In this document: in pieces, positions 2,190 to 43,563 of the stretch
Position numbering within the stretch: position 1 is the first letter of the stretch
How the letters are laid out: each line of letters opens with the position of its first letter
Assembly: GCA_022827885.1 (NCBI GenBank)
Contig: JAJEIP010000072.1
Location: 16,508-80,507, forward strand
Length of the DNA: 64,000 nucleotides
Source: Candidatus Poribacteria bacterium
Lineage (GTDB): Bacteria; Poribacteria; WGA-4E; WGA-3G
Direction: 5' to 3'
Notes under the pieces: model-generated
Seen by the model: only the letters and a program-made list of their open reading frames with translations
What the model was told of the DNA's origin: nothing
Database searches by the model: none
Translations under genes and position numbers: made by a program

Positions 2190-2274
2190 GCCTGCAACAA
2201 CGGCGCAGGCGGGACCTCTAAAAGGAACGTATAAACAAGACCCGCGATGTTTAACCGCAAGGTAAAATTAAAAG
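2190..2274 (+). repeat. Composite dispersed repeat: GCCTGCAACAACGGCGCAGGCGG hairpin module, a 42-bp spacer, then the CCGCAAGGTAAAATTAAAA start-proximal element
   Basis: The 23-mer at 2190-2212 is identical to the one at 45145-45167. In both places the CCGCAAGG element follows exactly 42 bp downstream (2255-2274 and 45210-45229). Confidence 0.7.
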
Positions 2275-5200
2275 CCTTAAAAACGCAAAGTCTGTTGTTA
2301 AAAACTGGGATCATCTTTATCATTGCCCTCTGTTCATCGTCTGAAGTCGTCGTCAGTCGTATTGCCGAAGAAGAGACTGAACCTAAGAATAATCATCAGT
2401 CGTCAGTCGTAGGGGTTGGGTCACCCAACCCTTACAGAGATGATTCTGTTGAACAGGAATCCTCTTTAACGGATAACCGAGAACCGACGACTGAAAACGC
2501 TAAAAATGGATTTGGGTTATTCACCCGCAACCTCTTCGACAATGATAGCGAATCAAAGCACTTCATTTGGCAAGAGAAAAAAGAACAAATCGAGGTTCCT
2601 GAGCAGACAGCGGAGGAAGACCTCCTCATCCAACCCTACCTCGACAGTCTCCGGCACTGGCGGTATCCTCCCCATTTAACCGATCTCGATAAACTCTATG
2701 ACTGGAAACCAAGAGCGAAGCGTGACGAAAAAGGCATCGCTCTCCCGATGGATTCCAATCTCAGGATAACAGGTTTGCAATCTGTAACCGTAGAGGCAAA
2801 CAGGACCCACTACTTCGGTGACGGCGATCTGAACCGATACGGGGGTTACGGCTATGGTGGCGGATATGGAGGCTACTCATCAGGACTTGACTTGGGGCTC
2901 ACCTCGTCTTACGGTTACGAAGACTTCGGTTACGGCAGCAGCGGTTTTGGTGGCGGATACGGTTCAGGATATGGAAGTAGTTACGGTAGTTATGGTTCCA
3001 GCTACGGTTCGAGCTACGGCGGGTTCGGGGGTGGATACGGCAGTAGCGGTGTTCCACGCGCAAGTGGGTTTAACCTACGTCAAATACAGCAATTTGGGCT
3101 ACACGGTCGCGTGGGGCAACGGACGCATATCGCTGTAGACTATAGTGCTGGCGGCAGCGGCTTCGGTAGCGGTGGTTATGGCGGTGGATATGGTGGATAC
3201 GGCGGTGGGTACGGCGGCGGATATGGCATCGGCGGCACCAAGGAACAGAAGATTAAAATCTGGTACGAAGGGACACCCGAGAGTATAATAAAAACCATCT
3301 CCTTTGGCGACATCACACTCAGTTTACCGAATACCCGTTTTCTGAACATCAATCGGAATCTGTTTGGACTTGAAGGCGTCTTTGAGTGGAAAAACACACG
3401 TCTGACGGCGTTCGGTTCTCGGAGTAAGGGAATACGCGAGGTGCGTACGTTCCGGGGGCAGTCGCGGCGCGCTGGTGGCGGATACGGTTATGGACCCCGC
3501 GGGATCCAGATACCGGATACCAACTACGTTAAAAATCGGTTCTACCACATCCAAAAAGGTGAAGACGGCGAACTACACGACGCATATCTCCCTATCAAAT
3601 CAGGGAGCGAGCAAATTTTCATTGACGACGGCGTCGTCGGAAACAATCAGGGCGGTCAACGAACGAGTCGCGGCTACTTCAATCCCCAATACTCCGGTCA
3701 GGACTACAATATTGACTATGAAACCGGTGAAATAGAATTCCTATCTCCGATTTCTGCAAATTATACCATCGTCGTCTCGTATGAATATTTAGGCGGTGAT
3801 GGCGGCATCGTTGGTAAATCTGAAGTCTTTGTTGATGAAAACGGAGACGGAACACTTGACGAAGAGGGTGAGGAAATCGGCTATGTCGTGCTAAAAGAGA
3901 AGGGATTTCGCGGCACAGAGGCAACACACGTCTATAGCCTTGGCAACCGCAACATTAATCCACGTGACTTCACACTCACACTCCTCCGACAAGGACAGAG
4001 CGAAACCTTCCAGACGAATACCCGCTCTGTTCCGTATCTCGAAATTTTTGGGTTGGATCAGAACAGTGATGGTATTGTAGATGCCCAGTTTATAGACTAC
4101 GACAGAGGCTTACTCCGTTTCCCCACGACGGATCCGTTTCAAATTGTAGACCCAGCCCATCCATATTACGATTACCGCGATTCACTCAACAACACTGCCA
4201 TCTACCTCGAAGGTGTCCGAACAGATGCCCAAGTCTACACGATTATCGCGGACTACGCGTATCAATCAGAAACGTACAATGTAGGTTTGTTTGTGATTCC
4301 AAACAGTGAGACAGTCCGATTGAACGGGCAGCTCTTGACGCGCGATACCGACTATATGATGCTTTATGAGGTCGGTACTCTCCGATTCTTCAGACAACTC
4401 GATGAGTTTGATGAAATCGTTGTGGAATTTGAAAAGACACCCTTTGGTGGTTCATCACAACAAGCTGTAGCCGGCGTCTGGTTAGAGTACACACGCAAAC
4501 AGGAACCCAAATCCGATAGAGAACAGAGCCTTGAGGACAGATTCAATCGGTTAGGGGGCCTTCAAACAATGGACGCAGATATGCTGGGTGAAGGAACGGA
4601 TGCCTTCGGTAGAGGCGTGTCAGGGGGATTTCAACAGAGGAGCGGCGGTTTAGGGGGTTTCGGGAGCGGTTCTCGCTTCGGTAGGAGCAGTTTCGGGGGT
4701 GGATTCGGTGGCGGTTACGGCGGGGGTTATGGCGGCTACAGTAGTTTAGGCGGTCGCTCGCGAAGCTACTACGGTAGTTATGGCGGCGGAATGAACTATT
4801 TCAACCCGGTTTTTCAAAAGGGATTTTCGCTCTCAACGGGTTATATTCTGAACACCGGACAAAAACCAGCGGAAATACCAGATGTGAATAGCGTGCCAAA
4901 CCGCTTGCAAGCGTTCAACGTGAATACGAGTTTTGGACGGGAATTTAACGTCGCTGGTATTTTAAACCTATTGCCCTTTATTAACGTGAGAAACCTGCCA
5001 CTTTCAGTTGACTTCAGTGGAGAAGCGGCTTATTCACACAACAACCCAAACAGTATTGGCGTCGCGCTTATTGATAGCATGGAAGGGGCAAAGGACTCAA
5101 CGACCGTGCCGACATTAAAATACAATTGGAAACCGAGTAGTGTTCCATACGTATCGGAAAATGCACCAATACCGTCTGGAGATTCCGGTTACTACGTTAT

Positions 5201-8200
5201 ACCGACCGACGAGAATAGAGTGATCTTTAACGTTGTGCTGAAAGACAAAAACGAAACGGAAGCAATAGGCAACTATATGCGGAACCGCGATGTGCCAGCC
5301 TCATCAATTCAACCGCTCTCTCTCTCGACTGAAGAACGCCTCATTATGGAACTCGGCTACAATTTCACAGACGTGATCGCCGAGTGGGGCGGTTTTTCAA
5401 ACGGTCTCTCGGCATCCGGGGTAGACTATTCGGAACGTAGCTTCGTTGAAATTTGGATGCGCGTCCAAGGCGACGACAATGTGACGCTCCACTTGAATCT
5501 CGGGGTGGTGAACGAAGATACAGATGCCGACGAACGACTGGATAGCGAAGATCTCCCAGAAACGCTAACGGATACGAATGGAGACGGAAGTATTGATGCA
5601 TTGGATTTAGACCTGGAGAACCTTTCAGAGATCAATCGCTATCGTGGGAACGGCGCGCTCGATACAGGTGAAGACATCGGATGGGGACATAACGGGCCGC
5701 TTGAAAGAACATCTATCGGCGTAGGCAACCAGATTCTGGACAGCGAAGACCTCAACGGTGATGGGGTCCTTGATAGTATAGACGCATATTTTGAGGTAGC
5801 GATCCCACTCAATGAGATTCCGAAAGAATGGGTTAAAAGCAAAAATGCAAACGGTTGGATGTTCCTCAGTATTCCACTCTCTAAATTTAAGCCAGAGGGG
5901 TCTCGCCTGCCGAGTCTCGTTTTCGTGCAACACTTCCGATTCTGGTTGAGCAAAAACGCACCCGGTAATGTAGAAGGTTTATTGCAATGGGCGGATATTG
6001 AAATTGTTGGCAATAAATGGAAGCAGGGGATCATCACCCGGTCAAGTTCTGTAGGAGGGGTTTCTAACCCCGATTCCTTGGACGCCATAACGAACAACCC
6101 AGCACTCGCCTCGACCGGAAACACCTTGTCAACGAGTACAATTGTGGACGACACATTGGAAAAATTCATTGTTGGCACGAGGGATAACTTCAGTTATGAC
6201 GCGTATCAAAGTGCGTATCTGGATATCGAAGATAACGAGCTCTTCAAAAAATTACATCCATTCACAGCCACTTCACTCGGTTTTCAAACACAACAGCAAC
6301 GTGAACAGACACTGAGCCTCGAATATTACCTCTTTCCCGGCTCCTACGGTGTCACCTCGAAGCAATTGAAGGGCTTAACACAAAGTGAAGGACAAGATTT
6401 CAGCAAACACGATACACTTCGATTTTGGCTCTATGGGGACAAAAGCGACACAACCTTCGTTTTACAACTCGCGCCAACCGTCCGAACCGGCTATCGCAGC
6501 TCCTTCTATAGTTCAGATCCGTTTGTCAATCAGACAGAACAGGAAGAAGATATTAACGTTTTCGAGAATCTAACAGACTACTATGAATATACAGTCCCGA
6601 TTGACTTTGAGGGTTGGAAGTTAATTGAAATTGATTTGCGGGACCTTCGCAGAAACGACTATCCGGATGTTAATAGCGATCAACCATCTGTAGTCAGCAA
6701 TCAGCAAGAACCGGCTGCGGTAGAACCCCTTCCCACACCACCATCCGCCGAAATCGCAGAGGATGCCCCAGATGGACAGCCCGATGGTTTCACGATTCGC
6801 GGGAAGAATAGCATGCGGCTCTCCATCAAAAACATCGGCGGTATCCTCTTGGGTATACGGAACGATACTGGCGGTGAAATCAGTGGAGAAATCTGGGTAA
6901 ATGAGATTCATCTCGGTGATCCGCTCGTGCGTGCCGGATGGGCGCGTCGCGGTAATATGTCGGTGTCCCTCGGTAGAATTGTTAAATTACGCGGCGGCTA
7001 CGCAAGCCAAGACAAAGATTTTGAAAGCGGCGCGGGTGAAGTTGGTAGACAACGGCTCTCCTCACGCGGATATAGCACGACAAATAACGATTTTAATATC
7101 GATGCAGATGTTACGCTATTTCCATGGCTGCCGATCCGATACGGGATCCGACAGCAAGACACGGAAACCGAGAGCCAGCGCGGTAGCTACAGCAGCTTCC
7201 AGAGCGGGAAAAGTGAAATCCGTACCCGAGACATTTCTGTGCAGTTCATTCAAAACCCGTATCCGAATCTCGGCTTTGCTTACAACTACCAAGACTTTTG
7301 GAACGAACGTCAAGGCACACAAATTAGCCACCTTTATACGGGTAGCTTACGGTATGAACTCGGTTCAAAACTCGGGGTCAACGCGCAGTATCGGCACGAA
7401 GACATACTTGCCAAACCCGAAACGGCTACGGAGACAGCCTCGACTTCAACATCCTACTATAGTTACGGCTACGGTAGAAATCGAGATGAAAAAACAGATA
7501 GCGGCACCATAACATTTAATATTAATCCAACGAGTATCTTCAGTCTGAACCCCAGTTACGATGTCCGCCGGACGCTTGAAAGACGGGAAGATCCAAACGC
7601 CAGCACTTCACTTGCCGGCAATATAACGAATTTGGGTTTGGAAACCTCTCCCACAATCTCCGAATCCGAAGAAGAGACCCCCATCGAAGATGTTAAATGG
7701 TCAATTGCTGAGCGAGAACACCGATTGTCGCTGACCCCACGCTTAAACCGGGATCTGATCGGCATGCGCCCCACCGTAACAAGCCGTATGAGTTTTCGTG
7801 AAAACTGGTTCCGTGAACAGAAAAACGCTTCACTCAATGGAAACGTCAGTTTCGGCGTGAATCTCCGCGTTCAAAAATGGTTCGGATGGCTCCTCAAAGA
7901 AGGGAATGGAAGACAAGAAGAAGAGAAAGAGGGGGTACCGAACCTTCCAACCCCCGAACCTTCCAATCAAGAATCTCCTACGCTTCCAACGGATTCGGGG
8001 TTGGAAACCGATCCCGCGCCCACTCCTATAACTGATGACCTCAGTGCACAATTAAGGGAAAACGGTATTGACGAAACACAAATCCAAGAGTTAGAAGAGA
8101 ATCGGGGGGATTGGATCGAACGTGATAAAAGCGAGTTGCCACCTGTAGGCGCGAAAACCGGGGATAGCGGAACACAAGCGGGAACAGTTTCAGAGGTCAA

Positions 8201-9035
8201 GGACGGTATCCTGCATCGAATTCTGAAAAGTTTCACTGTTAACACCAACGCAAACTTCACCGCTACTGAATCGTATCGGCAACTTGCATCCGGCCTATCA
8301 ATGTTAGAAATCTATTCGCTCGCGGACGACGCAAAGGAACGGACAAACTCCCGGCGCAGCAATCGTTATACAGTACGGAGTTCGGTAGACCCGTGGAATT
8401 GGGCATCCTTCGGAACGAACCTCAGCACTTCCGACAGTTTCCGAAAAAGTTCAGGGACAACCTACATACAGAACACCAACGCTTATGAAGCCGACGTAAA
8501 ATTGAAAGCGCGAGAAACCTCCAGTTTTCAACTCCGCTACAGTTATACAACGCGAAATAATGGGACCCTGGATACTATACTCGGCGACAGCAAAGCACAT
8601 ACGCCTTCATTGAGTTGGATGCAAACATGGGGCAAGGAAACTCGGACAGCATTGGGGGTCCGGACTACGATTCGGGACCAACTACGGAGCGGTATTAGAA
8701 GCAATGCGCTCATCGTTACGCCAAACCTGAGTATTGAATACAAATACCACACAGAAAACGGCATACGGATACCGTTTTTCGGTAGAATCCCTTTGAAGCA
8801 CGATCTCGATTTAACCAATACCCTCTCTTGGGCTATCCGTAGAGAACAGTATGGTGCGAACCTTGAAGAGCGTTCAGAAAGATATGAAACCACCTTGCGC
8901 GTGGGTTACAAAGTCAGCACGCATATCACAGCGAATTTCCATCTCGGCTTGAGTTACAACCACGATAGGGTTGAAGAAGGCAGAGATTTTCTCTCCATCG
9001 CCACTGCACTCACCGTCCGCGGCGAAATCCAATAA
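2247..9035 (+). CDS. Giant (2262 aa) secreted/outer-membrane protein; candidate SprA/Sov-like T9SS translocon or giant surface protein
   Basis: It has a Lys-rich n-region and a hydrophobic h-region (signal peptide). There are two Gly/Tyr/Ser low-complexity blocks (GYGGGYGGY...). There are several DxNxDGxxD calcium-loop-like motifs (DENGDGTLDEE, DTNGDGSIDALD, DLNGDGVLDSID). The C-terminal third is amphipathic beta-strand-like. The size matches SprA (~2300-2500 aa). The start codon is uncertain because the start-proximal repeat overlaps the 5' end. Confidence 0.7.
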   Translation: MFNRKVKLKALKTQSLLLKTGIIFIIALCSSSEVVVSRIAEEETEPKNNHQSSVVGVGSPNPYRDDSVEQESSLTDNREPTTENAKNGFGLFTRNLFDNDSESKHFIWQEKKEQIEVPEQTAEEDLLIQPYLDSLRHWRYPPHLTDLDKLYDWKPRAKRDEKGIALPMDSNLRITGLQSVTVEANRTHYFGDGDLNRYGGYGYGGGYGGYSSGLDLGLTSSYGYEDFGYGSSGFGGGYGSGYGSSYGSYGSSYGSSYGGFGGGYGSSGVPRASGFNLRQIQQFGLHGRVGQRTHIAVDYSAGGSGFGSGGYGGGYGGYGGGYGGGYGIGGTKEQKIKIWYEGTPESIIKTISFGDITLSLPNTRFLNINRNLFGLEGVFEWKNTRLTAFGSRSKGIREVRTFRGQSRRAGGGYGYGPRGIQIPDTNYVKNRFYHIQKGEDGELHDAYLPIKSGSEQIFIDDGVVGNNQGGQRTSRGYFNPQYSGQDYNIDYETGEIEFLSPISANYTIVVSYEYLGGDGGIVGKSEVFVDENGDGTLDEEGEEIGYVVLKEKGFRGTEATHVYSLGNRNINPRDFTLTLLRQGQSETFQTNTRSVPYLEIFGLDQNSDGIVDAQFIDYDRGLLRFPTTDPFQIVDPAHPYYDYRDSLNNTAIYLEGVRTDAQVYTIIADYAYQSETYNVGLFVIPNSETVRLNGQLLTRDTDYMMLYEVGTLRFFRQLDEFDEIVVEFEKTPFGGSSQQAVAGVWLEYTRKQEPKSDREQSLEDRFNRLGGLQTMDADMLGEGTDAFGRGVSGGFQQRSGGLGGFGSGSRFGRSSFGGGFGGGYGGGYGGYSSLGGRSRSYYGSYGGGMNYFNPVFQKGFSLSTGYILNTGQKPAEIPDVNSVPNRLQAFNVNTSFGREFNVAGILNLLPFINVRNLPLSVDFSGEAAYSHNNPNSIGVALIDSMEGAKDSTTVPTLKYNWKPSSVPYVSENAPIPSGDSGYYVIPTDENRVIFNVVLKDKNETEAIGNYMRNRDVPASSIQPLSLSTEERLIMELGYNFTDVIAEWGGFSNGLSASGVDYSERSFVEIWMRVQGDDNVTLHLNLGVVNEDTDADERLDSEDLPETLTDTNGDGSIDALDLDLENLSEINRYRGNGALDTGEDIGWGHNGPLERTSIGVGNQILDSEDLNGDGVLDSIDAYFEVAIPLNEIPKEWVKSKNANGWMFLSIPLSKFKPEGSRLPSLVFVQHFRFWLSKNAPGNVEGLLQWADIEIVGNKWKQGIITRSSSVGGVSNPDSLDAITNNPALASTGNTLSTSTIVDDTLEKFIVGTRDNFSYDAYQSAYLDIEDNELFKKLHPFTATSLGFQTQQQREQTLSLEYYLFPGSYGVTSKQLKGLTQSEGQDFSKHDTLRFWLYGDKSDTTFVLQLAPTVRTGYRSSFYSSDPFVNQTEQEEDINVFENLTDYYEYTVPIDFEGWKLIEIDLRDLRRNDYPDVNSDQPSVVSNQQEPAAVEPLPTPPSAEIAEDAPDGQPDGFTIRGKNSMRLSIKNIGGILLGIRNDTGGEISGEIWVNEIHLGDPLVRAGWARRGNMSVSLGRIVKLRGGYASQDKDFESGAGEVGRQRLSSRGYSTTNNDFNIDADVTLFPWLPIRYGIRQQDTETESQRGSYSSFQSGKSEIRTRDISVQFIQNPYPNLGFAYNYQDFWNERQGTQISHLYTGSLRYELGSKLGVNAQYRHEDILAKPETATETASTSTSYYSYGYGRNRDEKTDSGTITFNINPTSIFSLNPSYDVRRTLERREDPNASTSLAGNITNLGLETSPTISESEEETPIEDVKWSIAEREHRLSLTPRLNRDLIGMRPTVTSRMSFRENWFREQKNASLNGNVSFGVNLRVQKWFGWLLKEGNGRQEEEKEGVPNLPTPEPSNQESPTLPTDSGLETDPAPTPITDDLSAQLRENGIDETQIQELEENRGDWIERDKSELPPVGAKTGDSGTQAGTVSEVKDGILHRILKSFTVNTNANFTATESYRQLASGLSMLEIYSLADDAKERTNSRRSNRYTVRSSVDPWNWASFGTNLSTSDSFRKSSGTTYIQNTNAYEADVKLKARETSSFQLRYSYTTRNNGTLDTILGDSKAHTPSLSWMQTWGKETRTALGVRTTIRDQLRSGIRSNALIVTPNLSIEYKYHTENGIRIPFFGRIPLKHDLDLTNTLSWAIRREQYGANLEERSERYETTLRVGYKVSTHITANFHLGLSYNHDRVEEGRDFLSIATALTVRGEIQ
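2415..2433. repeat. Palindromic element GGGTTGGGTCACCCAACCC embedded in-frame in the giant ORF
   Basis: It is a perfect 9-N-9 palindrome. The reverse-complement copy with the same flanks (CCCCTACG) lies intergenic at 29384-29401. It encodes VVGVGSPNPYR. Confidence 0.6.
6054..6077. repeat. Palindromic element GGAGGGGTTTCTAACCCCGATTCC embedded in-frame in the giant ORF
   Basis: The same 24-mer family occurs twice in the GH2 gene and once, degenerate, in the PorU-like gene. It encodes GGVSNPDS. Confidence 0.6.
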
Positions 9036-17840: not shown

Positions 17841-17933
17841 CTTCTGTTAACAAAATCCGAGAGGACTACCCTCCGATTCCGCTTTTCAGCACTCAGTCGT
17901 CCCTTTTTTCAGTCTTAAACTGCCCTTTAAACC

Positions 17934-18200
17934 TGTGGATAACCTGTGGATAACCTGTGGATAACTCAATTGGGAATTGTGGATAACTTGTGGATAACTC
18001 AAAATACACTTTTAGATTGTGGATAACCTGTGGACAACTCAAAAAGTTATCCACAGGTTATCCACAGGTTATCCACACCCTCAAGTCAATGGCCACAAGG
18101 GTTTAAGCGAGTTATCCACAATTTTACCGCCTACTACTACTCCTACTATGGTATATAATATATATATCGTAATTAGTTAAAGAATTAGCAATGTGGATAA
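17934..18200. other. oriC: 12 DnaA boxes (TTATCCACA) in phased convergent arrays plus an AT-rich DNA unwinding element
   Basis: TGTGGATAA boxes lie at 17934, 17945, 17956, 17978, 17989 and 18018, with a one-mismatch box at 18029; most are spaced 11 bp apart. Opposite-orientation TTATCCACA boxes lie at 18047, 18058, 18069 and 18112. An AT-rich stretch at 18121-18180 (tatggtatataatatatatatcgtaattagtt) follows. One more box lies at 18192-18200. Confidence 0.85.
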
Positions 18201-18352
18201 CTCGCGAATTCAAGAAGAGGTTAAGCAGGATCAAAAAGTTGTTAACGATATGCGAGAAAATTATTAACTCCAGAAAAGTTACGAGACCCAAAAATTTAGG
18301 TACGCTGCCGAAACGAAAAATGTTATCAATCTAATGTTACGCTCTCAAACAC

Positions 18353-19705: not shown

Positions 19706-19716
19706 ATAAATAAAAA

Positions 19717-20223
19717 ATGGACAGAACCCGTAACTTACATCATCTCCTTGCCGAACTCATACGAGCCCACGGCTTTGAGCCTAAGGTGCTTGAGCAAAAA
19801 GTTTTTGCTCTCTGGCCAGAATGTCTCAGCCGGAACGAACACTTCGCGCCACTCGCTACAAACACCGTCCCCATATCGTTGTCAAACGGCATCCTGAAGA
19901 TTTACACAGAATACTCTGCTTATAAATCGAGCCTATTGCTCAATAAACCGAAGATTTTAGCCGACATAAACGCTGAATTCAAGAAACCTGTTCTCACAGA
20001 CTTCCGCGTAGAAATCAAACCCCTCTTGGTCAAACCCCAAGAAACTGAAGACCAACCCTCAAGTCCAGAAACACCAGAAGAAGATTCTACCATCGGTAAC
20101 ACACACCAAGTTACACCCGAACAGTTAGAGAAAATTGAACAAGTTCTTGCAAACGTTTCTGACACACATCTAAGAGAATCCTTGTGGCAACTATTCACTG
20201 CACAGAGCAAGGACAACCCTTGA
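19717..20223 (+). CDS. DUF721/DciA-like protein (conserved recF-gyrB interval gene)
   Basis: A small protein sits between recF and gyrB. Its N-terminal region (LLAELIRAHGFEPKVLEQKVFALWPECLS) and conserved synteny are typical of DUF721. Confidence 0.55.
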   Translation: MDRTRNLHHLLAELIRAHGFEPKVLEQKVFALWPECLSRNEHFAPLATNTVPISLSNGILKIYTEYSAYKSSLLLNKPKILADINAEFKKPVLTDFRVEIKPLLVKPQETEDQPSSPETPEEDSTIGNTHQVTPEQLEKIEQVLANVSDTHLRESLWQLFTAQSKDNP

Positions 20224-20375: not shown

Positions 20376-22904
<2,529 letters not shown>

Positions 22905-22928
22905 CAGTTATCAGTACCGAAAACTACC

Positions 22929-33448: not shown

Positions 33449-36400
33449 ATGCTATTCTCAAAACAGATAGGAACGGGGCACAAACCTGTATATGCTTTAT
33501 TCAAGTTTGGTATTCTACTGGGCATCTATGTTCTCATCTTTGTAGGAGAGGTTTGTGCGGAAATCCGCAGCAAAAACACCCAGCAAAAACACCCCGATTC
33601 TTTCGCAAAGATTACCCAAACGACATCAACAGACGGAATCACTCTTCAATTCACCTTGCCGGAGCTGACTGTATCTGAGGTAATCCGGAATAATGTCCGG
33701 TACCAAGAGGTGCGTTACGCCGAGTGTCACTTCACCGATGAACCAGGAAACCCCAAAGTTCCTGTTACACGCCTCATGCTCGGTATACCCGCGACGGCTA
33801 CAATTGAAGCAGTTGATGTCTCTGCTGCGTCTGCTGAGACACGCACCGGCGTGCGTCTCATTCCAGTTCCGATTTTTGATATACATGAACGCAATTCACA
33901 ACACGCAGCTTCGCAGCGCTGGTCAGAAAGCGGGAGCGCATATCGGTTAAAAGAAAATGGCGCGTTTGCTGGAAACCGTTCATACCCTGGACATCCGCTT
34001 GCTCGGATCGTGCGCGAAGGCTATATTCGGAATCAACGTGTCATCGCGTTGGCACTATATCCAGTGCAATATCTGCCGAACACCCGGACACTGCATTTGT
34101 ATTCACGTTTCACAGTGAACATTCGTTTCTCCTATACGGAGCAGGGAGGACCGCTAACAGCACAAGGGAGCGGTTCACAAATTTTCCCTGTCCAAGGGAC
34201 AATTGCCCCAGAATCGGAGGCGTTTGAGCGTGCATTTTCACATCAACTCTTAAACGCTGAGCAAGCCGCCCGTTTTCGAGCACCCCGTCCACTGGTACCT
34301 GCAGCACCAACACTCATACCCAACGGCGGTGATGGAACACGTTATAAGTTGTCTGTCCAAGAGACAGGTATCTATGCGGTGACAGCAGCATCTCTTCAGA
34401 ACGACTGGGGTATAGATCTCATCGGCACGCATCCGACAAGATTGCGACTCACACAAGGAAACAGAAACATTCCTATCTACATCAGCGGTGCGGCGGATGG
34501 AAGTTTTGACCCGAACGATGCTATCTTTTTTCTCGGGCATAAGTCTAAAAATCGGTATAGTCGTTGGAATGTCTATTGGCTCACGATTGACAATAGTGCC
34601 ACACCTACCCGCCTTCCGGCACGGGTGCCACAGATTACCGCCAGCCCCACAGACCAAACGGCGACACAGGTTCCCACCTTCCGTTCTAAAGTGGATTTTG
34701 AAGAGGATCATCTGACGAGTAACCTCGAATTTGTCTATACTGAGACTGTTTCACCTGGTGACAAGCACGGTTGGTTTGATGCTTTGGACTTCTGGTACTG
34801 GGACGGTATAAAGAATGGGGGGGATGCCGCCGAGATGCGTCTCGAATTCCCGCTCTATGATGTCGCAAAAAGTTTCGATCCACCACGTATCTCCGTTGAT
34901 TTACAAGGCGGCACACCGGTATCACACGAGATTTTGGTCGCTATTAATGGAGTCCGGATCGATTTTGCCGAGTGGGAACAGCAAGACACACTCACCATTG
35001 GACGCACATTGCGCACTTGGGATACCCTTAAGGACAGCGTCAAAGGCGAACAGAACGTGTTGTCTTTAGCCAGAGTTGACAGCAACGTTGATGAGGATAC
35101 CACCCGATACCCCTATCATGTCTACCTCAACCGTTTTTCTGTCGAGTATACTCGTCTTTTCCGAGCTGTTGCTGACGAGTTATGGTTCAGATCACCCACT
35201 GCCGATGCAACCTCCCAAGAGCGAAAACTCCCTGGAGGTCGTAAACTCCAGTATAAAATTGAGGCGTTCCGGGACCCGGGGATACATATCTTTGAGACGG
35301 ATGGGACATACCTGACTGCCCAGATGCAAGGTGTGAATGTGGAAGTAGATGTGGAAGGGGTTTCTAACCGCGATTCCTATAATGCGCTTTTCCAAGTACC
35401 CGATACTCGAAGCACCCAATTTATCGCCGTTTCCAATACGGCGTTGCGTCAGCCTGATCGCGTTGAGGTCGTTGTACCTACGGGCTTAGCGACTGCAGCG
35501 CAGGGTGCTGACTATCTAATTGTGGCACACCCTAACTTCCTTTCTGCCGCCCAACGATTGACAGCGTGGCGATCGACACCTGGCGGGGGCGGATACCGCA
35601 CCAAAGTTGTTACAACCGATGATATTTACAATACCTTTGGGGATGGCGGTGTCAATCCGAAGACTATTAAGGCGTTTCTAAAGCATGCGTTTCAGTCTTG
35701 GACCGCGCCAGCACTAACCTATGTAGTCCTCTTTGGCGATGGCACCTTCGATTTTCGAGGCATTGACACGGATATTTATGCTGAACCGCCGGAGCTGGCT
35801 GGATACATTCCAACCCATTATATACGAACCGATTCCTTCGGACGGACCGCGGCAGATCATTGGTATGCGACCGTTTCCGGACACGATGAATTCACGGATT
35901 TCTATATAGGTAGGCTCAGTGTTGAGACTCCCGATCAAGCGGATGCAGTCGTTGACAAAATCATCGCCTACGAACAAGCACCGCCTAACGGGGACTGGCG
36001 GCGAAGAATTATTTCTGTTGCCGACGACGAAGTTAGTAACTCTGGAGATTTTATTTTTAAGAAAAGCCTTGATGAAATAGCGAAAGATCACACCCGCCTT
36101 GGATACGAAACGGTTGAGGTGTTCCTTGAAGATGTTATTGACCAAGTGGAAGCACATCCGGCGGATTACCCAGGACTCTTGCCCCAACGCGTGGCGAAAG
36201 ATCAAATCATTGAGGCACTTGGAGAGGGGGCTGTACTAGCACAATATGCCGGGCACGGCGGCAGAATCGTCTGGGCGCACGAAGCCATCTTTGATAATGC
36301 CTCTGTTGACCAAGTTGAGGAAACCGATAAAATCCCTTTCATGTTGGTTCTGAGTTGTTATAACGGCTATTTTGACAAGCCCGGTGAACCGAGCATGGCG

Positions 36401-39400
36401 GAGAAATTGTTACGTAAAGAGAGAGGCGGTATCATCGGCATGTTGAGTGCAACCCGTCTCACATACGGCAGCGGAAACGACGCTCTCAACCGTATCATTT
36501 TCGACATGCTCTTTAAACGGAACATCCGGCAACTCGGTCCCTTGAGTTTCGATTCAAAGGTTGAACTTTTGATGACAGAAGGCACGGGTCAAATTGATAT
36601 TATGATGGAATATACGCTTTTCGGTGATCCTGCCCTACAAATTGCTATCGCTAATGGTGAAATTCAACCTACTGTTGAGACGAAAACAGTTGCCCCTGGG
36701 GATACCCTCCGAATTGCAGGGGGACACGTCCAGACTGCCACTTACGACGCCGCAAGTCGAACAAAACGTTTTGTTACCGATACCTCTTTTAACGGCACAC
36801 TCACCGTTAAAGCTTTGTTTCCTGGGAGAACAGCTACCGCTCAAGGTGTTGCGGGTCCAGTGAAATACTACACTGGAGACGTGATTCTCACGAAAACGGC
36901 AAATGTTAACCGTGGTGCTTATCCTGCTTTGACTTTTTCTGTTCCGAAAAACATTGACAGCGGTGATGCCCATGTCGAGTACTACGCGCAAAGTAACACA
37001 ACTGTTGCTGTCGGTGGCGATGGATTTACCGTCAACATCCCCAAAATCCTCGACATTAAACCCGAGTTAGTCGATGAAGGCAAGTTCCGCATCTCTGTTC
37101 AGGTTTCCGATGAAAAAGAAGAACTGTTCCTGGTGCTCTTGGAGTGGCGTAATCCACAGAGTCGAGCGTGGGAGAATGTCCGGCTCGTTCCCGCCGATCC
37201 CCCGTTGTCGGAAGACGGATGGTGGACGGTGCCTGAACCTCTAAACGCGCCTATAGATGGTTCCTCTATCCGGTATAATCTTCAAGTCACGGATATAGAC
37301 AACAACACGGTTACAAGCGACAGACTTCAATATTATCCCTACGTATATCCTAATCTTACCATTGTAAAGATTGATAGAACTGACAGGGTTGGGTACGGTT
37401 ACAACACTAAAACGGAGCAATGGTATCTCTCGGCGGATGTACAGGTAGAAGGCGAAGGCATAGAGATCCCTATTGAGGTCGCTTTTTTCAGCGGCAATCC
37501 AGATGTTAACGATGATATGCTTGTTGACAACGATGTGAATCTCATCGGAACTACCCGAATCCAGCCCAACGACTGGGTGCAACGCACGCCGTTGGCGAAC
37601 CCCGGTACAAAGAAGGATGTTTATGAACCGGATCCGTTGAATACACTCCCAATTGCAACCGCTACTTTAAATCTGAAAGACTCGTTACCTCTCGGCACAC
37701 ACGACATATTCGTCTATATTGATGTGATAGAAACTGAAGCGGATCAGCCGGGTGATGTCCTTGAAAACGATGAGGAGGACAATATCGCTTACCGACGACT
37801 CTTTGTCGATATAAATGCGGTGGGAACGACTTCTTCAAGTCAGGTCACCAGTTTGGACCGGAATTGCATGATCACTGTTCCGCCTGGTGGTTTCCAAGAA
37901 GCAGCAGTGCTGGCAGTCCGTCCGTTAGATGAACGAAAGTTTCTGGAAACTGTAGGGGCGGGCTCTCTTGATACGACTCCGAAAGCCTCATCTTTCCGTA
38001 GTGGCGAGGGCACCTTGCCCTTACAGGGAATGTCCAAACGGGCACCACTTCCCGGTATCTCCGCTTACGGATATGAGATTGTTGTTGGTGAGCGTAGTGG
38101 CGAGGCAGCCTCGTCTGCAACAGACGTTATTAAACTTACCTCCTCGGTGGCGATCGACTTAAGCTTTGACCTCGGTGCTCTCAGAACCCAACTCACGCGA
38201 GAATTGTTGGGTGGCACGGAATCCGAAGACACACCTTTGGAAGAGGGACCCGATGAATTTGGGGTTGCAGATACAATTGACACCGCCATTGCATCCCGGG
38301 CACGTGAGTTGGGTGTTTATATGTTTAACTCGACACTCGGAAATTGGACGCGGCTTCCTTCTCAACAACTTGCCGATGCTACGGGGACGTTACAACAGCG
38401 GATACAGGTAACAAACGTGAGTGAGGATAACGTTGGCGAAAGCGCGCTTCGCGATGTTCGCGTCCAATCCGAAGGTGCTCGGACCGGCAAATACGTCCTC
38501 TTCTTCACGGGTCCTCAAACCTATCGGCTTTTCCTTGCGCCTTCAACAGATGACATACGGGTATTTGAACCCTTGGAAGTTATTGCATCCGCGGAGCAGC
38601 TTGGAAACTTTACTACGGACATCCCAAGCTCCAGACACGGCTTCTCGATTAATGTAGAACTCGATTTTGAAAAACCTTTTGTATTCGGGGATATCTTGAC
38701 ATTCAACATAACTTCGCTTGTACAATCAGTAGATGTTGAGCCAGATCTTGATGCCCCTCAACAAGAGGAGCGTTGGTATGCCTCTGGGTTCAGGGATACT
38801 AACCGAGGCACGGGTACCATCAGTTACGTTGAACTTCCGCCGGACACCACTATGCCGGAGGATAAGTGGATTATCTTCTTCCTGACGGATAGTGTTTTTC
38901 AGGTTGAAGGTGAGAGAACCGGTATTTTGCGTTCCCAAACTGATGGAAACCAGCCATTGCATGGAACGGTCGGAGAACCTTTCGATTATAAGTCCTACGG
39001 CTTGCGTTTTCAACTCACGCAAGGCGAACGCTCCTTTGCACCTGGTGATAGATTTCGGTTTCAAACCCGATCTGTCGGTACTATTCGAGCTACAACGGAT
39101 CGCCTTGGACCAATTACGCTGCTGTATACCGACGATACTGTGCCACCAGATATACAACTCACTATCGGCAATCAACAACACTTTGTTCCGGGGGATGCAA
39201 CAGATTCGGAACCGCTCATCGGGGCAACATTAACTGACCTAAGTGGACTTGATTATCTCACGCGTCCGCTGCTATTGGAAATTGGAGATTCGTTCGGTGA
39301 ATATGAGCGCATTAAGCCGGAGGCGTATCAAGTGACACATCATCCCGGTTCAAATCAACTCGTTTTAACATATCCGTCTCCGGAGCTTGAACCGCGGGAA

Positions 39401-39772
39401 TATGAGGTTCGCCTAACTGCAAGCGATGTCCATGGAAATACGGATACAGTGAACATCACATTTCGAGTCCATGATACTTTACAACTGCTATCGTTTCTTA
39501 ACTATCCAAATCCTTTTCCGCGCAAAACAACGCTCACCTGCGAATTAACAGCCCCTGCTGATTCACTGGTTGTGAAAATCTATACGCTGAGTGGAAGACT
39601 GATCCGGGAGCTCGCTATGCCACCAACACCTGGGTTTCTTATGGTGGAATGGGATGGCAGAGATGCTGATGGCGTTGAGGTGGCAAATGGCGTTTACTAT
39701 GCTAAACTCCGAATCCAGCGCGAGGGTGAAAAAGATATAACCGAAATACTTAAAATGATGAAATTGCGTTAA
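33449..39772 (+). CDS. Giant (2107 aa) gingipain-like C25 cysteine peptidase with T9SS C-terminal sorting domain (PorU-like)
   Basis: It has a signal peptide. The C25 catalytic dyad regions are YAGHGGRIVW (His) and PFMLVLSCYNGYFD (Cys); compare gingipain YTGHGS and ACVNGDF. The C-terminus has the canonical Por_Secre_tail motifs (LNYPNPFPRKTTL...KIYTLSGRLIREL...WDGRDADGVEVANGVYYAKL). Confidence 0.85.
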   Translation: MLFSKQIGTGHKPVYALFKFGILLGIYVLIFVGEVCAEIRSKNTQQKHPDSFAKITQTTSTDGITLQFTLPELTVSEVIRNNVRYQEVRYAECHFTDEPGNPKVPVTRLMLGIPATATIEAVDVSAASAETRTGVRLIPVPIFDIHERNSQHAASQRWSESGSAYRLKENGAFAGNRSYPGHPLARIVREGYIRNQRVIALALYPVQYLPNTRTLHLYSRFTVNIRFSYTEQGGPLTAQGSGSQIFPVQGTIAPESEAFERAFSHQLLNAEQAARFRAPRPLVPAAPTLIPNGGDGTRYKLSVQETGIYAVTAASLQNDWGIDLIGTHPTRLRLTQGNRNIPIYISGAADGSFDPNDAIFFLGHKSKNRYSRWNVYWLTIDNSATPTRLPARVPQITASPTDQTATQVPTFRSKVDFEEDHLTSNLEFVYTETVSPGDKHGWFDALDFWYWDGIKNGGDAAEMRLEFPLYDVAKSFDPPRISVDLQGGTPVSHEILVAINGVRIDFAEWEQQDTLTIGRTLRTWDTLKDSVKGEQNVLSLARVDSNVDEDTTRYPYHVYLNRFSVEYTRLFRAVADELWFRSPTADATSQERKLPGGRKLQYKIEAFRDPGIHIFETDGTYLTAQMQGVNVEVDVEGVSNRDSYNALFQVPDTRSTQFIAVSNTALRQPDRVEVVVPTGLATAAQGADYLIVAHPNFLSAAQRLTAWRSTPGGGGYRTKVVTTDDIYNTFGDGGVNPKTIKAFLKHAFQSWTAPALTYVVLFGDGTFDFRGIDTDIYAEPPELAGYIPTHYIRTDSFGRTAADHWYATVSGHDEFTDFYIGRLSVETPDQADAVVDKIIAYEQAPPNGDWRRRIISVADDEVSNSGDFIFKKSLDEIAKDHTRLGYETVEVFLEDVIDQVEAHPADYPGLLPQRVAKDQIIEALGEGAVLAQYAGHGGRIVWAHEAIFDNASVDQVEETDKIPFMLVLSCYNGYFDKPGEPSMAEKLLRKERGGIIGMLSATRLTYGSGNDALNRIIFDMLFKRNIRQLGPLSFDSKVELLMTEGTGQIDIMMEYTLFGDPALQIAIANGEIQPTVETKTVAPGDTLRIAGGHVQTATYDAASRTKRFVTDTSFNGTLTVKALFPGRTATAQGVAGPVKYYTGDVILTKTANVNRGAYPALTFSVPKNIDSGDAHVEYYAQSNTTVAVGGDGFTVNIPKILDIKPELVDEGKFRISVQVSDEKEELFLVLLEWRNPQSRAWENVRLVPADPPLSEDGWWTVPEPLNAPIDGSSIRYNLQVTDIDNNTVTSDRLQYYPYVYPNLTIVKIDRTDRVGYGYNTKTEQWYLSADVQVEGEGIEIPIEVAFFSGNPDVNDDMLVDNDVNLIGTTRIQPNDWVQRTPLANPGTKKDVYEPDPLNTLPIATATLNLKDSLPLGTHDIFVYIDVIETEADQPGDVLENDEEDNIAYRRLFVDINAVGTTSSSQVTSLDRNCMITVPPGGFQEAAVLAVRPLDERKFLETVGAGSLDTTPKASSFRSGEGTLPLQGMSKRAPLPGISAYGYEIVVGERSGEAASSATDVIKLTSSVAIDLSFDLGALRTQLTRELLGGTESEDTPLEEGPDEFGVADTIDTAIASRARELGVYMFNSTLGNWTRLPSQQLADATGTLQQRIQVTNVSEDNVGESALRDVRVQSEGARTGKYVLFFTGPQTYRLFLAPSTDDIRVFEPLEVIASAEQLGNFTTDIPSSRHGFSINVELDFEKPFVFGDILTFNITSLVQSVDVEPDLDAPQQEERWYASGFRDTNRGTGTISYVELPPDTTMPEDKWIIFFLTDSVFQVEGERTGILRSQTDGNQPLHGTVGEPFDYKSYGLRFQLTQGERSFAPGDRFRFQTRSVGTIRATTDRLGPITLLYTDDTVPPDIQLTIGNQQHFVPGDATDSEPLIGATLTDLSGLDYLTRPLLLEIGDSFGEYERIKPEAYQVTHHPGSNQLVLTYPSPELEPREYEVRLTASDVHGNTDTVNITFRVHDTLQLLSFLNYPNPFPRKTTLTCELTAPADSLVVKIYTLSGRLIRELAMPPTPGFLMVEWDGRDADGVEVANGVYYAKLRIQREGEKDITEILKMMKLR
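35353..35377. repeat. Degenerate copy of palindromic element (GGAAGGGGTTTCTAACCGCGATTCC) in-frame in the PorU-like gene
   Basis: It has one mismatch in the stem. It encodes EGVSNRDS. Confidence 0.5.
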
Positions 39773-39805
39773 TGGTTGTTAGTTCGAATAACCGATAACA
39801 AAGAA

Positions 39806-40900
39806 ATGAAACATCTTAAAAAAAATATCTTCTATTTTCTGGTGTGTGTAATTACGTTCTGCGTGATGGCTCTCCAATCCGCTGAGGCGAGATACACTGC
39901 TGATTTCCTAACACTTGGGGTTGGTGCTCGCGCACTTGCTATGGGCGGTGCCGGGACTGCTCTGAGTGACAATGCTTACGCGCCGTATTGGAATCCTGCT
40001 GGATTGGGACAGCTCACTCGATATGAAGTCAGTTTCATGCATTCCACGCTCAATGGAGAAGATGCTTACGATTTCGCCAGTTTTGTGGTGCCGCTTGCAA
40101 ACCACAACTTGCAAGACAAAAGTCATCCACTGAAAAAACGAGGCGCAATCGGTGTCAGTTGGCTCCGCGTTGGTGTTGACGATATCCCTATTACCAGTCT
40201 GCCTGTGGTCAGTCGTCCTGTTGGACCTATGAACCGTCCAGAGGTTGTAGGGTCTTTCAATAATACCGATAACGCCTTTCTCTTTGCTAACGGCTGGAGA
40301 TTACCTGCTTTTCGTGGGATTCATTTACATCTCGGCGGGACACTCAAACTTCTCTATATGAGTGGGTATCGAAGCACAAATGCCATCGGTGGCGGCGCAG
40401 ATGTCGGTATTATTGCGATGACAAACCCAGAGAAATCTCATCAACTCATTCTCGGATTGCAGGCGAGCGATGCCTTTACGACAAAACTCTATTGGAATAC
40501 ACCGCCACAATCGTCAGATCAGACATCCCACACGGAAACAATATTGCCACACCTGAAGATTGGTATTGCCACGATACACTCGCTCCCTATCTTCCGAAGT
40601 ACACTCATTCTTGCCCTGGATACCTACATCCAAAATCAGGGTCAATCTCAAGTCGAGGAACCGCAGGGAAGTCCTGTTGAGTTACATGCAGGTGCCGAGT
40701 GGACGCTTTTCGATCTGCTTGCCTTGCGAATTGGAATGGCAGAACGGAGTGGGAGTCTTGAGAGTGTTCGTCAACTGACAGCAGGGGTTGGGTTGAACCT
40801 CCGATTCGTCACCGGGGCAGGTGCAGGATTAGACTATGCGTTTGCGAACCACCCAGCATTAGGGGGTAGTCATCGCATATCCCTCAGAATTCGGTTTTAG
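39806..40900 (+). CDS. Outer-membrane beta-barrel protein, PorV/PorP-SprF-family-like (T9SS-associated)
   Basis: The ATG at 39806 gives a classical signal peptide (MKHLKKNIFYFLVCVITFCVMALQSAEA|RY). The N-terminal motif is LGVGARALAMGGAGTALSDNAYAPYWNPAGL. It ends in ...RIRF (terminal Phe). It lies 30 bp downstream of the PorU-like gene, as in porU-porV pairs. Confidence 0.5.
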   Translation: MKHLKKNIFYFLVCVITFCVMALQSAEARYTADFLTLGVGARALAMGGAGTALSDNAYAPYWNPAGLGQLTRYEVSFMHSTLNGEDAYDFASFVVPLANHNLQDKSHPLKKRGAIGVSWLRVGVDDIPITSLPVVSRPVGPMNRPEVVGSFNNTDNAFLFANGWRLPAFRGIHLHLGGTLKLLYMSGYRSTNAIGGGADVGIIAMTNPEKSHQLILGLQASDAFTTKLYWNTPPQSSDQTSHTETILPHLKIGIATIHSLPIFRSTLILALDTYIQNQGQSQVEEPQGSPVELHAGAEWTLFDLLALRIGMAERSGSLESVRQLTAGVGLNLRFVTGAGAGLDYAFANHPALGGSHRISLRIRF

Positions 40901-43512: not shown

Positions 43513-43563
43513 AGGAAGTTTGTGTGTAAAGTTCCGGTTCGGAAGTTAGACCGTAGCGTGTTG

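Follow-up and report, generated by a model that had tools for sequence, protein, structure and literature searches.

Results

The gene and its features

The stretch of DNA analysed here (64,000 nucleotides, referred to as the window), from a sponge-associated member of Candidatus Poribacteria, carries on its forward strand an open reading frame of about 6.8 kb, which encodes a protein opened by a signal peptide, as an earlier note on this DNA had described. The coordinates of this gene, of the features recognized within it and of two genes located further downstream are compiled in Table 1. Sec-type signal peptides were found at the start of all 52 aligned homologues, many of them ending in AxA-like sites, and no conserved lipobox was detected across the N-termini of these proteins. 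The protein is predicted to be exported by Sec and, according to the AlphaFold (AF2) model and the strand sequences, to end in a barrel strand. A T9SS C-terminal sorting domain, the lack of which had been noticed before, was indeed not detected in a domain-model search, as neither PF18962 nor PF13860 gave a match. Promoter and terminator scans near the gene yielded nothing of note.

Table 1. Features of the SprA-like gene and of the neighbouring T9SS-type genes (nucleotide positions in the window)
Feature	Position	Strand	Residues	Basis
Probable SprA/Sov-family outer-membrane translocon homologue	2247..9035	+	2262 aa	ATG-start ORF, divergent Poribacteria clade
Sec-type signal peptide	2247..2345	+	~1-33	Basic n-region, hydrophobic core, AF2 helix aa 7-32
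27-nt palindromic element, in-frame (VGVGSPNPY), in variable disordered N-terminal region	2409..2435	+		13-nt arms, 92% complementary
Gly/Tyr tract GY1a, loop with predicted disorder, flanked by strands aa 170-185 and 274-289	2838..3050	+	198-268	Composition, pLDDT<50, coil
Gly/Tyr tract GY1b, loop with predicted disorder, flanked by strands aa 293-301 and 333-341	3147..3233	+	301-329	Composition, AF2
Region of colinear similarity to TIGR04189 (model 378-1503)	3696..7148	+	484-1634	Fragment scan
Motif 1, DENGDGTLD	3834..3860	+	530-538	Family-conserved; canonical SprA aligns weakly or has a gap here
Motif 2, DQNSDGIVD	4056..4082	+	604-612	D604, D608 invariant; aligns with 'GLD...DGxVD' of canonical SprA
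Gly/Tyr(Phe) tract GY2, loop with predicted disorder, flanked by strands aa 740-751 and 859-869	4608..4802	+	788-852	Composition, AF2
Motif 3, DTNGDGSID	5571..5597	+	1109-1117	D1109, N1111, D1113, D1117 invariant; outgroup consensus similar, LDTEDxxxxDGxLD
Motif 4, DLNGDGVLD	5748..5774	+	1168-1176	Outgroup SprA consensus 'LDTEDLNxNGxLDT'
Predicted C-terminal barrel region, ~25 long antiparallel amphipathic strands	6942..9032	+	1566-2262	AF2 C-half, alternation, Foldseek
PorU-like C25 peptidase (T9SS sortase-like) with C-terminal T9SS-type sorting domain	33449..39772	+	2107 aa	NF033707, Peptidase_C25, FlgD_ig
PorV/PorQ-family outer-membrane protein, directly downstream of the PorU-like gene	39776..40900	+		NF052325 PorV2 E=4.8e-32; NF033709 PorV_fam

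An in-frame palindrome reported at position 2415 proved to be real and to belong to a repeated family of 27-nt elements. A second copy lies at positions 29370-29396, and 13 further copies, mostly within ORFs, were found across 80 Poribacteria loci. Another palindrome, reported at position 6054, did not hold up: its arms comprise merely 6 bp (GGGGTT tct AACCCC), as expected by chance, and it was not picked up by the family search. For the study of genome evolution, short palindromic elements that lie in-frame within genes of Poribacteria could be interesting in their own right.

Homology to SprA/Sov

An HMM search against the SprA models, which the earlier note had proposed, gave a match of the protein to TIGR04189 (SprA/Sov) in five stretches with E=8e-41, although the score of 139.4 bits misses the curated cutoff of 200 bits. 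The match to PF14349 (SprA_N) is weak and also stays below its cutoff (20.1 versus 27 bits); according to precomputed annotation, PF14349 is present in many of the homologues. In a fragment scan, residues 484-750, 904-985, 1160-1260 and 1444-1634 corresponded in this order to positions 378-672, 722-805, 1083-1196 and 1322-1503 of TIGR04189. Furthermore, the 52-sequence family was aligned by hhalign with 23 TIGR04189-positive proteins, resulting in a probability of 100% and E=1e-183 over 1530 columns; the alignment covers columns 226-2068 of the 2073 columns of the query HMM and ends at most 5 columns from both C-termini. By sequence search, no match to solved SprA in the PDB was obtained with the whole protein, with residues 1111-1684 or with the profile of the 52-sequence family. 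The relationship to SprA is detectable only by the curated HMM, profile-profile and fold comparison. At the level of sequence profiles, these comparisons demonstrate colinear homology to SprA over almost the entire length of the predicted protein.

Relatives of the protein are encoded at 257 genome loci, and the best 80 of these 257 are all from Candidatus Poribacteria. An exhaustive profile search returned 1629 representative clusters, in which the Poribacteria family scores at least 996 bits and the next relatives at most 351 bits. As judged from these searches, an SprA-like protein is conserved across Candidatus Poribacteria. Existing names for members of this family are "hypothetical protein" and "LysM domain protein", because the family scores below the curated SprA cutoffs. 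N-terminal LysM domains are borne by deep-branching homologues, and this position would fit a periplasmic N-terminus as it has been described for Flavobacterium johnsoniae SprA (PMC10994853). The nearest relatives outside Poribacteria (P0095-P0236, E=1e-99 and weaker) are uncharacterised SprA-family proteins of uncultivated bacteria. They share with the Poribacteria family the TIGR04189 match, acidic DG motifs and the SprA_N-type sequence 'Q.L.V.L.G.IG...V.VD', but are shorter (median 1854 versus 2159 aa) and devoid of Gly/Tyr tracts. TIGR04189 was matched by all 23 sampled relatives from outside Poribacteria, the best reaching 3e-270, and P0105 scored 499 bits against the cutoff of 200. No T9SS genes were found in the genomic context of P0105.

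Predicted structure

The protein was modelled by AF2 in two halves run separately, with modest confidence (pLDDT 68 and 58, pTM 0.47 and 0.38). In Foldseek searches against the PDB, the four SprA chains 8gl8_A, 8gl6_A, 6h3i_A and 6h3j_A took the top four places for both halves, with E=6e-23 to 1e-14 for the N-half (next match 8.6e-3) and E=1.8e-16 to 1.5e-11 for the C-half (next match MtrB, 1.8e-6); the step down from SprA to the next structure spans 5 to 12 orders of magnitude. Among the weaker matches of the C-half are other large barrels, namely Deinococcus SlpA/SDBC and MtrB. The Foldseek TM-scores are low (0.15-0.33), and the identity in the structural alignments amounts to about 10-14%. 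In total, about 36-37 long strands with alternating hydrophobicity are predicted (12 plus 25), a count that is approximate for halves modelled separately and in which closure of the barrel is not visible. The amphipathic, β-strand-rich character of the C-terminal region claimed in the earlier note is borne out by the model: hydrophobicity alternates in most of the strands from about residue 1566 to the C-terminus, and an acidic and Pro-rich disordered insert (aa ~1875-1996) interrupts this region. In these models, the predicted fold resembles solved SprA in both halves. A lack of SprA similarity together with the lack of a predicted barrel, which would have spoken against the assignment, is contradicted by the colinear TIGR04189 match and the strands described above.

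Neighbouring T9SS-type genes

A PorU-like and a PorV-like gene lie adjacent to each other 24 kb downstream of the SprA-like gene (33449-40900). The PorU-like protein matches NF033707 with E=1.4e-118 and 397 bits, just below the cutoff of 420, as well as Peptidase_C25 (E=1e-83), and bears an FlgD_ig domain at residues 2027-2087. Relatives of this C-terminal domain carry PF18962 and bear the name 'T9SS type A sorting domain'. A search with the domain itself returned short fragments only and confirms that it is of the T9SS sorting type. The PorV-like protein reaches 86.4 bits with NF033709, just below the cutoff of 90. As to the claimed coexistence of the SprA-like protein with T9SS cargo, the FlgD_ig/Por_Secre_tail-like C-terminus of the PorU-like protein is the only cargo-type domain found in the window, and no other protein with a sorting domain was found within the 64 kb. 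Likewise, no GldK/L/M/N, SprE/PorW, PorT, Plug, SkpA or PPI was found above threshold within the window. Two candidates were rejected: the ORF at 51668-53047 matches GldK no better than EgtB and contains a generic FGE-sulfatase domain, and a TPR protein (25549-27309) reaches only 37 bits as PorW/SprE.

Discussion

A putative type 9-like translocon

The TIGR04189 match, the profile-profile alignment, the top-ranking SprA chains in Foldseek and the PorU- and PorV-like genes in the same window all support the earlier suggestion of an SprA/Sov-like translocon. The product of ORF 2247-9035 is probably a highly divergent SprA/Sov orthologue, which would serve this member of Candidatus Poribacteria as the outer-membrane translocon in secretion of the type 9-like kind. 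By analogy with F. johnsoniae SprA, the protein would be exported by Sec and then inserted by BAM as a very wide barrel. Folded CTD-bearing proteins would leave the periplasm through this barrel bound to the PorV-like protein, and the PorU-like peptidase would subsequently process the exported proteins.

The Gly/Tyr-rich loops

The Gly/Tyr-rich low-complexity tracts reported for this protein are real, but amount to three instead of two, because a conserved β-hairpin divides the first block. The block at residues 195-331 contains 39% Gly and 15% Tyr and that at residues 780-852 41% Gly and 10% Tyr, as compared to 11% Gly and 5% Tyr in the whole protein; in addition, the blocks contain 4-10% Phe and 15% Ser. 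In the AF2 models the tracts have pLDDT values below 50 and no secondary structure, and each is flanked by long predicted strands. Such tracts are absent from all 131 outgroup SprA representatives. The G+S+Y+F fraction of the richest 40-aa window is 0.75-1.00 in 80 family members and at most 0.55 in the outgroup. Opposite GY1a (about 88 residues in this comparison), canonical SprA P0105 has only about 10-15 residues, and opposite GY1b about 10 instead of about 31; in the hhalign comparison with canonical SprA, GY1b consists of insert states and GY2 faces no template residue at all. The three tracts of about 30-110 residues rich in Gly, Ser and Tyr(Phe) replace short inter-strand connections and mark the Poribacteria clade among the SprA proteins. 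One self-consistent way of counting the strands, starting at N- and C-termini taken as periplasmic (11+25=36 crossings), would place GY1a and GY1b on the extracellular side and GY2 in the periplasm. This assignment was not relied on because the outcome hinges on which short strands are counted.

The protein might be an ordinary SprA-type translocon whose tracts are neutral low-complexity expansions, generated by replication slippage in insertion-tolerant loops and serving at most as spacers, an explanation that we regard as possible but rather unlikely. The DNA of the tracts is composed of short imperfect repeats (GGY GGY GGN TAY GG..., families D1-D3), their length varies among homologues from 96 to 139 aa in block 1 and from 42 to 112 aa in block 2 with composition but not sequence being kept, and the in-frame palindromic element and the acidic and Pro-rich insert indicate that other insertions are tolerated as well. 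However, products of slippage would be expected to appear and vanish among lineages, whereas the tracts are kept at the same three positions and with the same composition by every one of the 80 full-length members of the family, down to 37% identity and including the deep LysM-bearing clade. Moreover, Tyr stays at 7-23% of the tracts throughout the family, and the motifs at the tract ends (NRYGG... and GGRSRR.YG) are conserved, with R839 being nearly invariant.

We prefer to neutral slippage the idea that the Gly/Tyr tracts may lie at the mouths of the pore or in its lumen, where these flexible segments would associate with one another and gate or seal the pore or serve in docking. In a much more specific version, which we consider improbable, the Gly/Tyr(Phe) loops would form a cohesive, disordered and aromatic-rich meshwork at the mouth of or inside the pore. 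The translocon would then contain its own permeability barrier, or a phase in which substrates dock, functionally comparable to what FG repeats provide in the nuclear pore. The three tracts sum to about 165 residues (~15 kDa), and by a rough estimate a hydrated gel made of them would match in order of magnitude the lumen volume of a barrel about 70 Å wide. If such a meshwork existed, the tracts would have taken over part of the sealing that is achieved by the separate Plug and PorV in Flavobacterium.

Other readings of the barrel and of the acidic motifs

A giant barrel of the SprA fold might also function outside type 9 secretion, as a pore for large solutes, as a surface-layer or matrix anchor or in another kind of export, with the loops as adhesive or cross-linkable extracellular elements directed to the sponge matrix. 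Scores under the curated SprA cutoffs, the motor and ring genes not seen within the 64 kb and the Foldseek matches to SlpA/SDBC and MtrB would agree with this, as would the fact that Gly/Tyr-rich proteins elsewhere, such as plant glycine-rich wall proteins and high-Gly/Tyr keratin-associated proteins, are structural and cross-linkable. Nevertheless, such a role appears quite doubtful: the matches to SprA exceed those to other barrels in strength by at least 5 orders of magnitude, the homology to SprA is colinear over the full length, and a near-threshold PorU homologue with a T9SS-type sorting domain adjoins a PorV-family gene in the same 64 kb.

At least four calcium-binding-type DxNxDGxxD loops had been reported, and exactly four are present, at residues 530, 604, 1109 and 1168. 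Their D, N and G positions are mostly invariant or nearly so within the family, and the motifs are isolated. Four such motifs in a large protein with Gly-rich low-complexity regions could suggest a fibrous calcium-binding adhesin of cadherin-, dockerin- or thrombospondin-like repeats without a membrane barrel, but this is hardly credible, as no Pfam match to the cadherin, dockerin or TSP3 families was obtained even at E<=1, three of the four motifs fall in blocks common to canonical SprA, both AF2 halves match SprA structurally and the last 700 residues are predicted to consist of long amphipathic strands.

Comparison with known systems

Candidatus Poribacteria, which are uncultivated, are abundant as symbionts of sponges and as marine bacteria associated with particles. 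Recognition of this family as SprA translocons would provide them with a type 9-like export route and suggests a way in which their surface or degradative proteins might reach the matrix of the host. In the published accounts found, the T9SS does not extend beyond Bacteroidota or the FCB group, whereas the SprA-like protein presented here belongs to Candidatus Poribacteria; literature linking Poribacteria with T9SS was not found in our searches. The clade-specific Gly/Tyr loops would furthermore represent a natural experiment in the modification of a pore of about 36 strands. Should they gate or seal this pore, they would provide one of the few examples in bacteria of a translocon with a disordered, aromatic-rich barrier. 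Searches for literature on Gly/Tyr-rich disordered loops in outer-membrane barrels found none.

SprA of F. johnsoniae and Sov of Porphyromonas gingivalis (TIGR04189, PF14349; PDB 6H3I, 6H3J, 8GL6, 8GL8) resemble the Poribacteria protein in size (2262 aa versus a model length of 2319), in the Sec signal peptide, in about 1500 colinear columns, in being the best structural match of both halves and in acidic DxDG-type motifs. F. johnsoniae SprA is a barrel of 36 strands (PMC10994853), and about 36 long strands are predicted from the AF2 halves of the Poribacteria protein. PorV- and PorU-like partners are encoded 24 kb downstream of its gene. The Poribacteria protein differs from SprA/Sov in scoring under the curated cutoffs, in the identity of only about 10-14% in structural alignments, in its three Gly/Tyr-rich disordered insertions and, for some members of the clade, in the N-terminal LysM domain. 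Of the SprA/Sov system, Plug, PPI, SkpA and SprE were not found within the 64-kb window.

The FUS-family [G/S]Y[G/S] low-complexity domains, FG-nucleoporin repeats, plant glycine-rich proteins and high-Gly/Tyr keratin-associated proteins have in common with the Poribacteria tracts a composition of 30-40% Gly, in which Tyr/Phe and Ser recur at regular intervals, as well as predicted disorder and the keeping of composition rather than sequence. The phase-separation-like character ascribed to the tracts in the earlier note is a resemblance in composition only. In contrast to FUS-type domains, of which Gln and Asn are a feature, the tracts are almost free of these residues, and they differ from all of these families in being short (30-110 aa) and tethered at both ends between predicted strands of a bacterial outer-membrane barrel.

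Sequence homology of the SprA-like protein

The SprA-like protein is encoded by a single ORF (Table), and its signal peptide, proposed in an earlier note based on sequence alone, could be substantiated. The N-terminus consists of a basic n-region and a hydrophobic core, for which AlphaFold2 (AF2) predicts a helix at aa 7-32, and Sec-type signal peptides are present at the start of all 52 aligned homologues. No conserved lipobox was detected among these 52 sequences; C29, the sole cysteine of the protein, falls within the leader.

The same note had considered an SprA/Sov-like translocon plausible. The NCBIfam model TIGR04189 ("T9SS outer membrane translocon Sov/SprA") indeed matched the protein with E=8e-41, but the score of 139 bits is under the 200-bit cutoff. 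The Pfam SprA_N match was sub-threshold (E=3.4e-4, 20 vs 27 bits). In a fragment scan, the TIGR04189 matches were colinear (protein residues 484-750, 904-985, 1160-1260 and 1444-1634 on model positions 378-672, 722-805, 1083-1196 and 1322-1503, respectively), with no direct match for the first 340 and the last ~600 residues. SprA was not retrieved from the PDB by direct sequence search, whether with the protein itself or with the family profile.

A word-indexed search yielded 89 relatives with 37-77% identity and mostly about 2000-2390 aa, which, where named at all, are called "hypothetical protein" or "LysM ... protein" of Candidatus Poribacteria bacterium. In the species-representative genomes scanned, relatives are encoded at 257 loci; every one of the best 80 belongs to a Candidatus Poribacteria MAG, a phylum placed by the NCBI taxonomy under Bacteria incertae sedis, and two of these 80 loci show 96% identity to our protein, among them the orthologue L006 on OY764016.1. 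The deepest-branching members (P0077-P0087, 37-41% identity) have LysM domains, which bind peptidoglycan, at their N-terminus.

When a profile built from aa 470-1660 was used for an exhaustive HMMER search, 1629 representative clusters matched at E<=1e-3. The scores fall steeply from at least 996 bits within the Poribacteria family to at most 351 bits for the next relatives (1300-2600 aa). TIGR04189 was matched by 23 of 23 sampled next relatives (best E=3e-270), and P0105, a canonical SprA protein from outside Poribacteria, scored 499 bits, far over the cutoff. Profile-profile comparison of the Poribacteria family with these 23 proteins gave a probability of 100% and E=1e-183 over 1530 columns, spanning position 226 of the family profile to within 5 columns of the C-terminus. 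The homology to SprA is therefore essentially full-length, and sequence comparison places the Poribacteria proteins on a long branch within the SprA family.

Predicted structure

The two halves of the protein, aa 1-1150 and aa 1101-2262, were modelled separately with AF2 using the 52-sequence alignment. The C-terminal half (pLDDT 68, pTM 0.47) comprises a mixed domain and, starting at aa ~1566, some 25 long antiparallel strands, in agreement with the strand-rich C-terminal region described earlier. Its four best PDB matches are all SprA chains (8gl6_A, 8gl8_A, 6h3i_A and 6h3j_A, E=1.8e-16 to 1.5e-11), the first non-SprA match being the 26-strand MtrB (1.8e-6). For the N-terminal half (pLDDT 58, pTM 0.38), about 12 long strands were obtained, together with a soluble domain (aa ~420-735) that is predicted well; the same four SprA chains are its only strong matches (E=6e-23 to 1e-14), followed by a match at 8.6e-3. 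As expected for halves of one barrel modelled apart, the TM-scores are low (0.15-0.33). The models contain approximately 37 strands, compared to 36 in the SprA barrel (PMC10994853). Based on these models, the assignment of a predicted SprA fold is strong. The original observation is confirmed, and the TIGR04189 match, the profile-profile alignment and the SprA chains as best PDB matches support the SprA/Sov-like identity.

A second kind of disordered insertion between barrel strands was observed at window positions 7869-8234 (aa ~1875-1996); it has an acidic, Pro/Thr-rich composition and short predicted helices, and varies among homologues. Another acidic/Pro-rich stretch of low confidence lies at aa ~1478-1502.

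Gly/Tyr tracts

The Gly/Tyr-rich sequence reported earlier is real, but forms three tracts (GY1a, GY1b and GY2) instead of two. GY1a and GY1b, together block 1, are separated by the conserved segment PRAxGxNIRQxLQxGLHGRVGxxTHVxVDYSD; GY2 constitutes block 2. The region aa 195-331 contains 39% G and 15% Y, compared to 11% G and 5% Y in the whole protein, and aa 780-852 contains 41% G, 10% Y and 10% F. In the AF2 models all three tracts have pLDDT<50, lack secondary structure and each join two long strands: 170-185 and 274-289 (GY1a), 293-301 and 333-341 (GY1b), 740-751 and 859-869 (GY2).

In all 52 aligned homologues the position and composition of the tracts are kept, but not their sequence. 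Block 1 varies from 96 to 139 aa with 7-23% Tyr and block 2 from 42 to 112 aa with 1-23% Tyr, Tyr+Phe always amounting to at least about 14%. In the richest 40-aa window, the G+S+Y+F fraction is 0.75-1.00 in 80 of 80 full-length family members, compared to a maximum of 0.55 in the 131 nearest outgroup SprA-family representatives, which were taken from the best 150 of the 1629 representatives. TIGR04189 has no positions matching the tracts; in the profile-profile alignment GY1b corresponds to insert states and no template residues lie opposite GY2, and the connections of P0105 matching GY1a and GY1b measure about 10-15 and about 10 residues. Thus, the tracts represent a derived character common to the Poribacteria clade, namely loop insertions, predicted to be disordered, into the SprA barrel.

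The main rival explanation to a functional role is that the tracts are tolerated slippage products; the tract DNA consists of imperfect short repeats. However, their retention at three fixed sites throughout the clade argues against pure neutrality, although it is no proof of function. We speculate that flexibility and self-association could allow the Gly/Tyr loops to act in gating, sealing or docking. One self-consistent scheme of strand-parity counting, which hinges on the short strands counted, would place GY1a and GY1b on the extracellular and GY2 on the periplasmic side. The N-terminus of F. johnsoniae SprA is periplasmic (PMC10994853). The N-terminal LysM domains of the deep-branching homologues fit such a location and would anchor the translocon to the cell wall at this periplasmic end. 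Overall, the SprA-like protein belongs to a known family, within which it represents a divergent clade that had not been annotated before and is marked by an unusual disordered insertion conserved among its members.

Acidic motifs

At least four DxNxDGxxD loops had been noted, and exactly four are present (aa 530, 604, 1109 and 1168). From the motif type, we take calcium binding by these putative loops to be plausible. Motif 1 lies in a stretch specific to Poribacteria. Motifs 2, 3 and 4 fall within blocks common to the family and canonical SprA, the outgroup consensus being 'GLD…DGxVD', 'LDTEDxxxxDGxLD' and 'LDTEDLNxNGxLDT', and are therefore SprA-family features and not signs of an adhesin. 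The alternative of a fibrous adhesin was rejected because no cadherin, dockerin or thrombospondin model matched the protein.

Palindromic elements

The palindrome reported at 2415 proved to be a 27-nt element with further copies (Table), whereas that at 6054 has 6-bp arms only and was rejected as a member of this family. Allowing up to 4 substitutions in GTAGGGGYTGGGTNACCCARCCCCTAC, 13 more copies were found in 80 Poribacteria loci (1.94 Mb), the loci with copies being L003, L006, L014, L015, L018, L020, L026, L044, L065 and L075, compared to about 0.01 expected by chance according to our estimate. The arms covary (…GGCTGGGT/ACCCAGCC… vs …GGTTGGGT/ACCCAACC…). Including the two window copies, 12 of 15 fall within ORFs of 150 aa or longer and are read in frame as VG(V/A)G(S/L/A)P(N/S)PY or (S/G/R)RGWVTQPL, with a central base that creates no stop codon in the reading frame used. 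Besides the window protein, four SprA homologues carry the element, which occupies three different positions: aa ~50-90, close to the N-terminus, in the window protein, L006 and L003; aa ~750 in L075; and aa ~1440 in L018. It resembles a REP/RPE-like element of very short length, tolerated where proteins form disordered loops.

The unusually long recF ORF (18353-19705, 450 aa) contains, at 19019-19064, an in-frame perfect hairpin of 46 nt with 21-nt arms and a 4-nt loop. Sequences related to the hairpin arms in L059 and L022 suggest that Poribacteria genes harbour another, second family of palindromic elements.

Coordinates of the features in the window
Feature	Amino acids	Window position (nt)	Strand	Remarks
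SprA-like protein gene	2262 aa	2247-9035	+	ATG start
GY1a	198-268	2838-3050	+	composition
GY1b	301-329	3147-3233	+	composition
GY2	788-852	4608-4802	+	composition
27-nt palindromic element		2409-2435		GTAGGGGTTGGGT c ACCCAACCCTTAC, inside SprA-like ORF
27-nt palindromic element, second copy		29370-29396		intergenic
PorU-like C25 peptidase	2107 aa	33449-39772	+	NF033707 E=1.4e-118, 397 bits (cutoff 420); Peptidase_C25 E=1e-83
PorV/PorQ-family outer-membrane protein		39776-40900	+	PorV2 E=4.8e-32; PorV_fam 86.4 vs 90 bits

Genomic setting and other putative T9SS components

The SprA-like gene lies between a divergently transcribed Laminin_G_3 gene upstream and a GH2 glycosidase gene 125 nt downstream. 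The window contains dnaA, recF, a DciA-family gene, gyrB and gyrA and is therefore near the replication origin. These genes follow one another in this order (16443-25475); dnaA and recF are separated by a gap of 512 nt, and dnaN is missing between them. Furthermore, the minus strand carries a HepT-family RNase toxin gene of a type VII toxin-antitoxin system (31633-32103) and a peptidoglycan-recycling-like cluster (40930-44598) encoding the anhydro-MurNAc kinase AnmK, the exo-beta-N-acetylmuramidase NamZ and a PBP4B/beta-lactamase-family protein.

A PorU-like peptidase is encoded 24 kb downstream of the SprA-like gene, directly followed by a PorV/PorQ-family gene. Like the SprA-like protein, both score under the curated cutoffs, these two narrowly. 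The peptidase is giant, roughly double the PorU model size, and has a propeptide domain. Its last ~100 residues match FlgD_ig (…NYPNPF…VKIYTLSGRLI…WDGRD..G..VANGVYY…KMMKLR), and relatives of this C-terminal domain, itself of the T9SS sorting type, carry PF18962 and bear the name "T9SS type A sorting domain". No GldL/M/N, PorT, Plug, SkpA or PPI genes were found within the 64-kb window, and a TPR protein (25549-27309) matches PorW/SprE weakly (37 bits). An FGE-sulfatase-domain protein (51668-53047) with a ~214-aa N-terminal region scores similarly for GldK/PorK (122.7 bits) and EgtB (125.7 bits) and has no adjoining gldLMN; it is thus probably not a T9SS ring lipoprotein.

Overall, the SprA-like protein is a Sec-exported protein with full-length SprA homology, an SprA-like predicted fold and PorU-like and PorV-like partners encoded nearby. 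By analogy with SprA, its wide barrel would provide folded sorting-domain proteins, bound to the PorV-like carrier, with an exit from the periplasm, and the exported proteins would then be processed by the PorU-like peptidase (PMC10994853).
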